From assembly GCA_963780185.1 (NCBI GenBank), contig CAWABA010000006.1:544001-608000 (forward strand): a stretch of DNA of 64,000 nucleotides, in the 5' to 3' direction. The notes beneath the pieces are model-generated. The model saw only the letters and a program-made list of their open reading frames with translations, had not been told where the DNA came from and searched no databases. The position numbers and the translations under genes were made by a program. Positions 6,908-12,168 of this stretch are shown here, piece by piece. The stretch's first letter is position 1; every line of letters starts with the position of its first letter. The stretch is from Candidatus Bathyarchaeota archaeon. GTDB lineage: Archaea > Thermoproteota > Bathyarchaeia > Bathyarchaeales > Bathycorpusculaceae.

Positions 6908-6981
6908 GCGATAATAGTACAGCTTGGTTAGTACATAGGCTTGCCAAGTCTAGGACCCGGGTTCAAATCCCGGTTATCGCA
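6908..6981 (+). tRNA. tRNA-Gly(GCC), intronless, divergent AU-rich copy
   Basis: Acceptor GCGATAA/TTATCGC, D-stem GTAC/GTAC, anticodon stem TAGGC/GTCTA with loop TTGCCAA, T-arm CCGGG-TTCAAAT-CCCGG, discriminator A; no encoded CCA. Confidence 0.9.
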
Positions 6982-7277: not shown

Positions 7278-7384
7278 GCGGTCGTAGTCTAGTTTGGTCT
7301 AGGACATCAAGCCCCTGAGTTAGGCTCTGGGCGTGTAAGCCTGCCACGCTGACGACCCGGGTTCAAATCTCGGCGACCGCACCA
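7278..7384 (+). tRNA. tRNA-Gly(GCC) with 29-nt non-canonical intron (7310-7338, position 29/30) and encoded CCA
   Basis: Acceptor GCGGTCG/CGACCGC; bulge-helix-bulge TAGG-ACAT-caa-GCCC...GGGC-GTGT-aag-CCTG; splicing gives anticodon arm TCAGC-CTGCCAC-GCTGA. Confidence 0.93.
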
Positions 7385-10430: not shown

Positions 10431-10503
10431 CAATACGTATGGATATGACTCTACTGCGATATTACTTGGAGATTCGCTAGCTTTATCTATAAAGCATCTC
10501 AAT

Positions 10504-11100
10504 ATGAGTTCAGACAAGTGGGGGATAAGTAAATTGGCTAAGAATCCACAATCAAAGGACGACTCCTTAGAGGCCTTAGATTTCATTGTAAACGTTCTCA
10601 AAGAACATGAAAAAGACCTAGACAAATTGATCAATGAGTTAGCAACCGTAACCGAGCAGCTTGGAGACACAGGCGACCTTGGCGGCAAAGTAGAAAAAGT
10701 TGAAGAAAAAATAACCAGCTTACAGAAAGAAGTCGCAGGCATGATGAGTTACATCTCAGGCGTCGCACCCAGAGAAGCATTACCGATGACGAAAGAATCG
10801 CAGGAAGCCATACCAGCAGCTTCACCAGCGCCAGCACAGGCAGGGGCGGGAGGGCCCTCGGTGGTTTTAAGGTGCAAGCAATGGGAAGACTTCCAAAACT
10901 TGGCGTTCCAAGCTCAAACACTGTCTTTCACCTACAAGGAAGAAGAAAAAATCTTTCAGGCAGACGCCCTCAAAGGAAACAGAATAATCACTTACAGCGG
11001 CACGCTTCCAAAGTTCTCTCAAATCTTAAAAGCGTGGCTTTCCAAGGAACTGGGTATCCAGGAAAGAAGCATCCTTGAAGGCGTTCTAGCTATAAGCTAA
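10504..11100 (+). CDS. hypothetical protein with N-terminal coiled coil
   Basis: 198 aa ORF with typical codon usage and TATA-like TTTATCTATAAA upstream. Confidence 0.8.
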   Translation: MSSDKWGISKLAKNPQSKDDSLEALDFIVNVLKEHEKDLDKLINELATVTEQLGDTGDLGGKVEKVEEKITSLQKEVAGMMSYISGVAPREALPMTKESQEAIPAASPAPAQAGAGGPSVVLRCKQWEDFQNLAFQAQTLSFTYKEEEKIFQADALKGNRIITYSGTLPKFSQILKAWLSKELGIQERSILEGVLAIS

Positions 11101-11149
11101 ATCTGAATTTTCAATTCTTAAACCTTATATTCTTTTCTCGGTATCTTAG

Positions 11150-11640
11150 TCCTGTCAGTGATGGAGGGCTAATCAAGGTTGAAGGCTAAACCACCTACTA
11201 AGCCAAAAAGTTTTTTCCGTTTTCGAAGCCTTCTCCTTTCTCCTCGATGACGGATGGCACTGGTAGCCAACATACAAGAAAGCCCTCCATCACCAACATT
11301 GTAGATAAAACCGCTAAGCGTACCCAACATGTCCAGGATGAGGGAAGCAAATTACGCCAAGACTTAAATCCAATCGGCAACAATCATACCTTGGTTGATT
11401 TGTTTGGCTGTTGATGTTTCAAGAGCAAAGAAACCGAAGCTTCCCAAAAAGCGGTTGCTGAAGAAAACAAATAGAAGATAAATGAGCACGCAAGCCCTGC
11501 CTTCTGCGAGATTTTTGATTTGCCAGCAAGGAACATGCCGAAAAAAGGGAGCGCCCCGCGCTAACGGTGCTGTTCTCAAAAAGGGAATTCGCCAAAAGTG
11601 CGCGATTTCCGCCGATTGGAAGGAAAGCAGGTTTGCCTGC
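11150..11640 (+). ncRNA. candidate large structured non-coding RNA (unassigned)
   Basis: TATA-like TTATAT 11125-11130; 13-bp stem 11158-11170/11281-11293; 10-bp stem 11369-11378/11611-11620; many internal hairpins; A-rich loops on + strand; terminal hairpin 11627-11640. Confidence 0.55.
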
Positions 11641-11643
11641 GAC

Positions 11644-12168
11644 TTACTTGGGTGTTGTCAGGTATTTGAGGTGGAACGGTTTGATTACGATTCCAGTTTT
11701 TAAGTCAGCGTGGAAAGTTTGGCTTTCGATAACCCAATCAGATAGTTCTGAATCGTGTGCCCTTATGAATTCGGCGAAATTCGAGAAGTCTTCATGAAGC
11801 GAAATGCAGACTGCATCCCAGCCCATTCCTCTGCCGTCCAAAACCAATATTACGCTAGGTTGTTTGAGGTACCAATCTTTCATTTTCTGTAAGGCTTCAG
11901 TTTTCTCGTCGCCTGTTTTTAGTTTGAGTTTGCTTTTTAGAAAAGTGAAGGCTGCTATTTCAAACCCTATTTGCCCGAATTTTGGGATAACTGTGTATCC
12001 TTCGATGTAGTTGTCTTCAAGCATGGCTCTTCTTCGTGTAACCGTAGGTTGAGAGACACCTAGGGATTTGGCTAGTTGCCTATCGCTTCTATGCGAGTCT
12101 TTCATTAACTCAAAAAGTATTTTGTAATCTATCGGTTTCAGTTCTTTCATTGCAACCAACTTTACCAT
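11644..12168 (-). CDS. Lrp/AsnC family transcriptional regulator
   Basis: IDYKILFELMKDSHRSDRQLAKSLGVSQPTVTRRR HTH followed by GYTVIP. Confidence 0.9.
   Translation of the reverse strand: MVKLVAMKELKPIDYKILFELMKDSHRSDRQLAKSLGVSQPTVTRRRAMLEDNYIEGYTVIPKFGQIGFEIAAFTFLKSKLKLKTGDEKTEALQKMKDWYLKQPSVILVLDGRGMGWDAVCISLHEDFSNFAEFIRAHDSELSDWVIESQTFHADLKTGIVIKPFHLKYLTTPK

Follow-up and report, generated by a model that had tools for sequence, protein, structure and literature searches.

A segment of ~145 nucleotides (nt) in the genome of a Candidatus Bathyarchaeota archaeon very probably represents a real and new structured small RNA, which is restricted to the order of this archaeon and most likely acts with a 198-amino-acid (aa) protein encoded beside it. 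The segment, referred to here as domain 1, lies within a stretch of 64,000 nt (GenBank assembly GCA_963780185.1, contig CAWABA010000006.1, positions 544,001 to 608,000 of the forward strand; hereafter the window, with positions counted from its first letter), in a gap at 11101-11643 that is flanked by a 198-aa open reading frame (ORF) on the plus strand (its product is called p198 below) and a 174-aa Lrp/AsnC-type gene on the minus strand. An earlier interpretation of the letters themselves (the sequence-only reading) had proposed that the gap holds a single plus-strand non-coding RNA of about 490 nt with two closed domains. Its description of an undescribed structured RNA is borne out for domain 1, which has no Rfam match, and only these ~145 nt are conserved and covarying; the flagged 490 nt are probably four separate things, that is, the small RNA, a spacer, a 28-codon gene and an unconserved trailer (Table 1).

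Evidence for a structured RNA

Folded alone, domain 1 (11154-11298) has a minimum free energy (MFE) of -51.4 kcal/mol and a z of -5.86 (0/200 shuffles as good), whereas the supposed second domain (domain 2; 11360-11643) reaches only z -2.46 (1/200 as good), so that the comparison with shuffled controls suggested at the outset came out strong for the first domain and weak for the second. Across the whole gap the signal is modest on the plus strand (z -2.97, 0/100 shuffles as good) and z -2.05 on the minus strand (1/100).

The homologues of domain 1 share the following architecture: P1, the terminal stem, leads through a conserved, purine-rich junction (5' ...GGUUGAA, 3' AACAAAC.AUGA...) to P2, a long stem, which is followed by the invariant hairpin P3. 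This P1-P2-P3 arrangement is the MFE structure in most of 48 singly folded homologue stretches, as read from the dot-bracket strings rather than tallied, in a set that includes at least two off-target rows (L062 and the first L070 row). The letters of P2 vary freely while their complementarity is kept (for example, GGCCGACCAAAAGCAGCC with GGCUGCUUUUGGUCGGCC in locus L067). We rank first the count from a structure-blind MAFFT alignment (A2, 42 sequences), since alignments fitted to a model are biased toward it: 89 double-change cells were found versus 46.8 in shuffled alignments (0/500), and pairing with slid partners gave 36-47. Alignments made with a covariance model gave 241 such cells versus 79 shuffled (A4, 56 sequences; 0/500; slid partners 45-57) and 290 versus 91.6 (A7, 45 sequences from seven families). 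Compensatory changes occur at 9/9 modelled P1 pairs and 16/16 modelled P2 pairs (A4, in which P2 corresponds to helices 4-6), and the perfect 13-base-pair (bp) helix 11158-70/11281-93 of the sequence-only reading is present where it had been placed, as P1. The covariation check in homologues is thus strongly positive for P1 and P2; the helix proposed to close domain 2 lacks a counterpart in relatives (see below).

P3 is the most static part of the RNA, being invariant in 30/30 sequences of alignment A1 and paired in 96.6% of cells in A4, and only the wider set A7 reveals compensatory changes, at 7/9 pairs. The core at 11212-11254 is 100% identical across 42-43 nt in five genomes from other genera (BLAST) and the junction word GGTTGAA is invariant or almost so (A1 and A2), which places the RNA among the most conserved non-ribosomal sequences in this analysis.

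Two pairings that had been drawn inside domain 1 are to be redrawn. The TGGC/GCCA hairpin (11255-58/11266-69) gives way to the conserved P2 pairs GCCA 11202-05/UGGC 11255-58 and GGCU 11184-87/AGCC 11265-68, and the letters of the proposed GAAGGCT/AGCCTTC pairing belong to P2 and the apical loop, with no clear covariation. For the GAAGG/CCUUC part of this alternative pairing, a double change (GAAAG with CUUUC) was seen in three rows from family f7 and a G-U pair in four rows, but a pair is lost in six or more rows, and the 3' side is a gap in three f7 rows; it could be a tertiary or alternative contact. RNAalifold, applied to the first MAFFT alignment, chose the invariant GAAGGC/GCCUUC and UGGC/GCCA pairings, a solution with zero covariation that the divergent homologues superseded.

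Distribution and linkage to p198

A BLAST search with 11141-11300 found a match in 166/301 genomes sampled from the order, including 138/147 in the family of the window (f1). The covariance model R1 has one match in the window's own genome and identifies the RNA in 19/151 genomes sampled across the class, all of them in the window's order, and in 0/117 genomes from other orders. In a sample of the order, R1 matches 53/151 genomes (f1 32/35, f2 3/3, f3 2/5, f6 12/25, f7 1/35, f8 1/1, f9 1/1 and f11 0/34). Family f7 is undercounted by R1: with the filters off, 5/9 f7 loci that lack a strong match give a full-length match of 18-21 bits, directly after the protein gene and with GGUUGAAAG, CUCCUUUCUC and CAACAAACGAUGA retained, and a degenerate two-word pattern occurs in 12/35 f7 genomes, with only 2 control matches across 151 genomes.

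In all 38 non-f6 genomes that have both, the RNA lies directly downstream of p198 on the same strand, 50-120 nt past the stop codon (coordinates from R1 and the protein profile). The profile finds p198 itself in 105/151 genomes of the order (f1 29/35, f6 21/25, f7 31/35), and its C-terminal domain in 24/151 genomes of the class sample and 0/117 outside the window's order. The suggestion that the upstream protein could be a partner gains credibility from both this adjacency and the same order-limited spread. Among the 12 f6 genomes the RNA is upstream of p198 on the same strand in 3 and divergent in 4, all 7 within 1 kb, and in one further genome the two are 11 kb apart. A second RNA copy in another genome (G256) follows a 93-aa ORF homologous to the p198 C-terminal domain (E 1.5e-16). 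Persistent proximity of this kind points to a shared function.

Two other origins were considered and set aside. Genes downstream of the RNA vary across 12 loci from other genera, contrary to a 5' leader or riboswitch of a downstream gene, and the stretch is single-copy in its genome, contrary to a repeat or mobile element, except that a degenerate core copy of 28 nt lies on another contig. That copy (TTAGAAGCCTTCTCCCTTTCTCCTCGAT; G000 C10:64724-64752, L002 about 1502-1529) lies just past the stop codon of a gene, lacks the flanking stems and scores 19.4 bits with R1. Extra or variant copies were also seen in six other genomes (L073 in G292, L075 in G017, L076 in G213, L077 in G250, L095 in G086 and L099 in G090); these keep the P3 hairpin and its loop, differ in the outer stems and are not beside a 198-aa gene. 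In G086 the gene that precedes the copy has similarity to the C-terminal half of an 819-aa protein encoded in the window (34% identity, E 1.6e-41).

Promoter, strand and start

The TTATAT that had been noted at 11125-30 is present, and the idea that the RNA has its own TATA-type promoter is well supported: in 52/56 homologues a TATA-like hexamer, preceded by an A-rich word resembling a B recognition element (BRE), starts 25-32 nt before the end of an AAGTCTT motif. The usual archaeal spacing, with the centre of the TATA box about 26 nt upstream of the start, would put the first transcribed nucleotide at about G11154, at the base of the terminal stem. The promoter is retained in family f6 although the RNA is not beside p198 there (rows L096-L098), and these arrangements with a retained promoter suggest that the RNA is a gene of its own rather than a 3' untranslated region (UTR). 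The plus strand is favoured by the side on which the promoter lies and by a U-G pair in P3 that is conserved in 43/56 homologues.

Between the TATA box and the predicted start lies a motif (TATCTTAGTCCT in the window, TATCTTAAGTCTT in most homologues) that is more than 90% conserved in A1 and A2. It has no second exact copy in the genome, in which scattered matches appear only at one to two mismatches, and it was not found upstream of the genes for RNase P RNA or signal recognition particle (SRP) RNA; it is possibly an operator or a processing signal.

The 198-aa protein

The start of p198 in the window aligns at TTG 10534, matching the MSKK... start of its homologues, rather than at ATG 10504. 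Its 2544 homologues are all unnamed or 'hypothetical' and carry the NCBI label Candidatus Bathyarchaeia, and no Pfam, NCBIfam or PDB-sequence family match was obtained beyond coiled-coil noise. AlphaFold2, supplied with 33 homologues, predicts a helical hairpin (residues 18-86) that a disordered linker (87-114) joins to a confidently modelled alpha/beta domain (120-192); modelled alone, this C-terminal domain has a predicted local distance difference test (pLDDT) score of 87.4 and a predicted template-modelling (pTM) score of 0.78. A Foldseek search of the PDB with the C-terminal domain returned no match at E <= 0.001. About 30 of the best 50 matches are to one small chain of many large ribosomal subunits or to the protein chain of the SRP Alu domain (core chains 1e8o_A, 4ue5_E, 5aox_D and 4uyk_A), at E 0.01-0.3, probability 0.5-1.0 and template-modelling (TM) scores of 0.41-0.75; we take the ribosomal chains to be eL38 and the SRP chain to be SRP9. 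We treat the resemblance of the predicted fold as a lead that the C-terminal domain may bind structured RNA, not as family membership.

In the window (10460-10534) and at homologue loci, the 198-aa gene has a strongly conserved promoter word of its own (GGATTCGCTAC.TTTATTTATA), located some 45-50 nt upstream of the start, together with a leader rich in purines. One genome of the genus carries a second full-length p198 paralogue elsewhere (G013 C11:50093-50650).

Junction and apical loop

The junction between P1 and P2 resembles, in many genera, a kink-turn (K-turn), the consensus of which comprises a C stem, a 3-nt bulge and tandem G.A/A.G pairs, to which each strand contributes a GA. By a strict pattern, the GA words (..GA-GGUUGA on the 5' strand and ..C(A/G)AUGA.. 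on the 3' strand) are both present in 25/56 homologues; one alone is present in 9/56 and neither in 22/56, the window included, and the two tend to co-occur. The presumed C stem, on the side of P2, has conserved mismatches. From these sequence patterns a K-turn is plausible in the RNA family, not in the window copy; the genome encodes two members of the L7Ae family.

The 17-nt loop of P3 holds CUCCU and CUCC, the core letters of the 3' tail of 16S rRNA, which in this genome ends in ...GGAUCACCUCCU. As the letters are shared with the 16S tail, the loop could pair with Shine-Dalgarno-like purine runs, and the best start regions pair with it down to -21.6 kcal/mol. That the loop works by such pairing is a tentative idea that we consider rather improbable.

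Comparison with known RNA families

In the comparisons made, the RNA matched neither Rfam families generally nor box C/D, H/ACA, SRP, RNase P or Y RNAs. A search of the 64-kb window with Rfam 15 at gathering thresholds returned only two tRNAs (6908-6981 and 7278-7381), and a sensitive search of 11000-11750 gave six chance-level matches, all far under gathering (best E 0.14); the gap contains no RNase P, SRP, rRNA or tRNA match, as the sequence-only reading had held, and the Rfam check that it had called for returned no family in the gap. The second tRNA match (plus strand) covers 104 nt against a 71-position model and so probably bears an intron. SRP RNA and RNase P RNA (RF01857 and RF00373) are found above their cut-offs elsewhere in the genome, at C5:2147-2461 (145.9 bits) and C6:424163-424465 (190.1 bits). 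The literature searched, from which subscription journals and supplements were outside coverage, held no description of non-coding RNAs of Bathyarchaeia.

Several known systems nonetheless offer partial likenesses. Archaeal K-turn small ribonucleoproteins (sRNPs) also contain a small RNA with paired termini, in most genera the present RNA has an internal loop with tandem GA words on both strands and a 3-nt bulge, and L7Ae genes are present; however, it has no guide region or conserved ACA, its size and box order differ, no Rfam model matches and the motif has been lost in the window's genus. For the SRP Alu domain with SRP9/14, the likeness lies in p198, the C-terminal domain of which has its best structural matches in Alu-domain and ribosomal chains that all bind structured RNA, but these matches are weak (E >= 0.01) and accompanied by no sequence-family match, SRP RNA is encoded elsewhere and the present RNA forms one rod, lacking the two-loop Alu fold. 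Y RNA with Ro60 (Rsr) is comparable as a rod-like RNA (~100-150 nt) whose ends are paired, whose internal protein-binding region is conserved and whose loop is rich in pyrimidines, yet Rfam gave no Y RNA match and a TROVE/Ro60 search (PF05731) found no gene in this 93.5%-complete genome, in which positive controls were matched. Bacterial and archaeal small RNAs (sRNAs) that mask Shine-Dalgarno sequences share the exposed, invariant CU-rich loop with core letters of the 16S 3' tail, but in the present RNA much more structure is conserved than such sRNAs require, its place next to a single protein gene is fixed and no preferred target was found.

The remainder of the gap

BLAST comparison with 41 related genomes resolves 10504-12168 into two conserved blocks. 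In the first, conservation of the 198-aa gene extends into the gap up to about 11276-11296; the second (11393-11482) accompanies the 174-aa gene, even where the 198-aa gene is located elsewhere. The Lrp/AsnC gene is beside the RNA in only 8/29 loci and is linked to a small ORF, not to the RNA. The sequences at 11299-11362 and 11482-11643 are unalignable among relatives.

Contrary to the view that the gap has no convincing ORF, the second block contains a conserved plus-strand ORF of 28 codons (11395-11481), which fell under the 30-aa limit of the ORF listing and displays the properties of protein-coding sequence, namely a kept open frame, third-position bias and in-frame indels. The frame is intact in 19/21 BLAST hits (one of the others is truncated and one spurious), and with three hits that repeat other rows set aside, there are 17 distinct intact ORFs, 26-36 codons long. 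Variable sites are distributed 12/7/20 over the three codon positions, differing codons are synonymous in 524 cases versus non-synonymous in 320, and length differences are whole codons. A TATA-like box at a conserved position about 26 nt upstream of the TTG start implies a leaderless mRNA. No Pfam or NCBIfam model matched the ORF. Within the genus it is conserved next to the Lrp/AsnC gene.

Domain 2, as judged from these sequence comparisons, is not an RNA domain. Two of its proposed hairpins (11407-26 and 11432-56) lie inside the 28-codon ORF. The 10-bp helix 11369-78/11611-20 is perfect in this genome, as had been reported, but does not have the domain-closing role assigned to it: it has no counterpart in any of the seven relatives that have the small ORF, in which the longest complements are 6-8 nt, the level of shuffled sequence. 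In the window, where the complement is 10 nt long, 0/200 shuffles of the trailer yield one of that length; the match is an inverted repeat of this genome only, linking the promoter region of the small ORF with the trailer. The nearest relative (L030), with 95% identity over domain 1, has an uncompensated change in one arm of the 10-bp helix and a replaced second arm, and the 3' arm of the GGAATTCGC helix is replaced there too. The latter helix (GGAATTCGC/GCGATTTCC) is present in the window at 11584-92/11602-10, with 8/9 pairs, and so is the GCAGG-TTTG-CCTGC hairpin at 11627-40, which may serve as a terminator for the convergent genes.

Table 1 Features of the locus in window coordinates; the ends of the small RNA are predicted rather than mapped
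Feature	Position	Strand	Details
198-aa protein gene (p198)	10504-11100	+	Listed ORF; true start probably TTG 10534
BRE/TATA-type promoter of the small RNA	11118-11131	+	CTTATAT; TTATAT at 11125-30
Promoter-proximal motif	11142-11153	+	About 13 nt between TATA and predicted start; TATCTTAGTCCT here, TATCTTAAGTCTT in most homologues
Small RNA, ~145 nt	11154-11298	+	z -5.86; covariance model R1 129.9 bits
P1, 5' arm	11158-11170	+	Pairs with 11281-11293
P1/P2 junction, 5' strand	11173-11183	+	UCAAGGUUGAA here; UGAGGUUGAA in most genera
P2, 5' strand	11184-11205	+	GGCU 11184-87, ACCA 11190-93, GCCA 11202-05; partner 11255-11268
P3 hairpin	11216-11254	+	UCCGUU-U-UCGA / UCGA-U-GACGGA around 17-nt loop 11227-11243 (AGCCUUCUCCUUUCUCC)
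P2, 3' strand	11255-11268	+	UGGC 11255-58, UGGU 11261-64, AGCC 11265-68
P1/P2 junction, 3' strand	11269-11280	+	AACAUACAAGAA here; AACAAACAAUGA in most genera
P1, 3' arm	11281-11293	+	Pairs with 11158-11170
Unconserved spacer	11299-11362		No alignment among 8 relatives with both flanking genes
TATA-like box of the small ORF	11363-11371	+	CTTAAATCC; CTTATAT in relatives; overlaps 5' arm of the 10-bp helix
Small protein gene, 28 codons	11395-11481	+	TTG 11395, TAA 11479-81; very basic peptide LICLAVDVSRAKKPKLPKKRLLKKTNRR
Unconserved trailer	11482-11643		Between the convergent small ORF and Lrp/AsnC gene; holds 11611-20 arm and hairpin 11627-40
Lrp/AsnC-type helix-turn-helix (HTH) regulator gene, 174 aa	11644-12168	-	Pfam HTH_24, HTH_AsnC-type

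Alternative explanations

Among the alternatives, a free-standing, trans-acting sRNA whose loop masks ribosome-binding sites, with p198 unrelated or merely co-regulated, is unlikely. It would account for the 16S-tail letters (CUCCU/CUCC) in the loop, the most conserved part of the RNA, for the persistence of variant copies without p198 and for the energies at which some start regions pair. A role of the loop alone, however, needs neither an invariant junction nor a covarying 30-bp rod, such an sRNA would not be expected to have kept the same neighbour gene in at least seven families and no target exceeds the reversed-sequence control. A more improbable proposal is that domain 1 belongs to the 3' UTR of the p198 mRNA, as an element acting in cis on stability or in autoregulation and produced by read-through or processing. 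The constant position downstream of p198 outside f6 fits such an element, processing could be signalled by the TATCTTAAGTCTT motif immediately 5' of the stem and the window has no terminator-like T run between the p198 gene and the RNA; set against this are the BRE/TATA elements at fixed spacing in nearly all homologues, the retention of the promoter in f6, where the RNA is upstream of, divergent from or on another contig than p198, and the existence of variant copies without p198.

We give little credence to a guide sRNP of the box C/D or H/ACA type missed by the Rfam models. Box C/D sRNAs are 50-70 nt long, with boxes C and D near the 5' and 3' ends, respectively, forming a terminal K-turn, and with an unpaired 10-12-nt guide upstream of D/D'. 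H/ACA sRNAs have an ACA directly 3' of the lower stem, a pseudouridylation pocket and an upper stem that contains a K-turn or K-loop. In many genera the junction words, UGA on the 5' strand and CGAUGA/CAAUGA on the 3' strand, do resemble the box D and box C consensus, and L7Ae genes are present. Yet the best Rfam box C/D match (sR10) has E 3.1 and 11.7 bits against a gathering cut-off of 45, the RNA is 145 nt long, the box-like words are internal and in reversed order, the would-be guide positions are paired in P1, the window copy lacks the GA words and no complementarity of 10-12 nt to rRNA or tRNA was seen at the canonical distance from a D-like box; the letters after P1 vary (CAACA, GACC, UAUUGA, GUUUAA) rather than conserving an ACA, and no Rfam H/ACA model matched. 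The single RNA of ~490 nt with two closed domains is very unlikely too: its closing helices are perfect in this genome, its 10-bp match outdoes every trailer shuffle and the whole gap has some excess of folding energy, but the 10-bp helix is missing from the relatives, its change in L030 is uncompensated, a conserved coding ORF with its own TATA box occupies the space between its arms, the sequences on either side of that ORF are unalignable and the two conserved blocks accompany different genes. We attach practically no probability to domain 1 encoding a small protein (for example, the 61-aa minus-strand ORF at 11198-11383): ORFs of 53-61 aa overlap it in this genome, but over 53 homologues no frame of the six remains open through the core (minimum stop-to-stop spans of 6-21 codons per frame), indels within domain 1 are not multiples of three (A1 and A2), the core is identical at the DNA level across genera and its flanks covary as helices.

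Proposed model and its implications

We suggest that the locus is best explained by a rod-shaped RNA of ~145 nt, belonging to an undescribed family and transcribed independently from its own promoter, that would form a small ribonucleoprotein (RNP) with the 198-aa protein. In this particle, p198 would contribute a coiled coil and a C-terminal fold like that of small RNA-binding proteins, an L7Ae-type protein would probably also bind the K-turn-like junction in most genera and the CU-rich loop would be the working surface, most plausibly by pairing with purine-rich, Shine-Dalgarno-like RNA. Taken as a whole (that is, a new small RNA, an RNP with p198 and the loop as its working surface), we consider this explanation probable, although well short of secure; that the RNA works together with p198, judged by itself, we put slightly below an even chance.

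A number of observations weigh against the model. The partnership with p198 is based on linkage and a weak fold match (no Foldseek match at E <= 0.001 and none in Pfam), the RNA and p198 are on separate contigs in 4/12 f6 genomes, and three genomes of the window's own genus (G017, G086 and G090; 95-97% complete) have a variant RNA and no detectable p198. This genus also lacks the K-turn-like signature, having an extended P1 instead. With respect to the loop, a target search using 8-nt seeds and duplex energies gave a best non-self value of -33.5 kcal/mol against -32.1 kcal/mol for the reversed control, and the p198 leader ranks 500th among 3048 crude-ORF start regions, leaving no nameable target. 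As to expression, the transcript, its ends and its strand are all deduced from sequence: G-U pairs (113) barely exceed A-C cells (85) in the modelled helices, and because a T4 run near the 3' end occurs in only 11/56 homologues, the 3' end at ~11298, placed where the terminal stem ends, is a guess. The single metatranscriptome run (X1, contigs only, share 0.06) has no contig across 10705-11620; its contigs, which derive from relatives, cover parts of the two flanking genes and are uninformative either way on the RNA.

Bathyarchaeia are abundant, mostly uncultivated archaea of sediment and peat, and the locus offers a concrete, testable RNA-protein pair from this group, of which the protein is small and the RNA lends itself to in vitro transcription. 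Several hundred genomes are now open to annotation of the RNA with the covariance model, and two thirds of the proposed 490-nt RNA turn out not to be RNA structure and to conceal an unannotated 28-codon gene. At its most speculative, and in our estimation unlikely, the scenario would extend to an order-specific RNP (composed of the RNA, p198 with its coiled coil and SRP9/14-like domain and, in most lineages, L7Ae) that mimics the anti-Shine-Dalgarno tail of 16S rRNA and competes with ribosomes for mRNA starts or docks on ribosomes. If true, such an anti-Shine-Dalgarno-mimicking RNP would add a new type of translation-control particle to the biology of uncultivated Bathyarchaeia.

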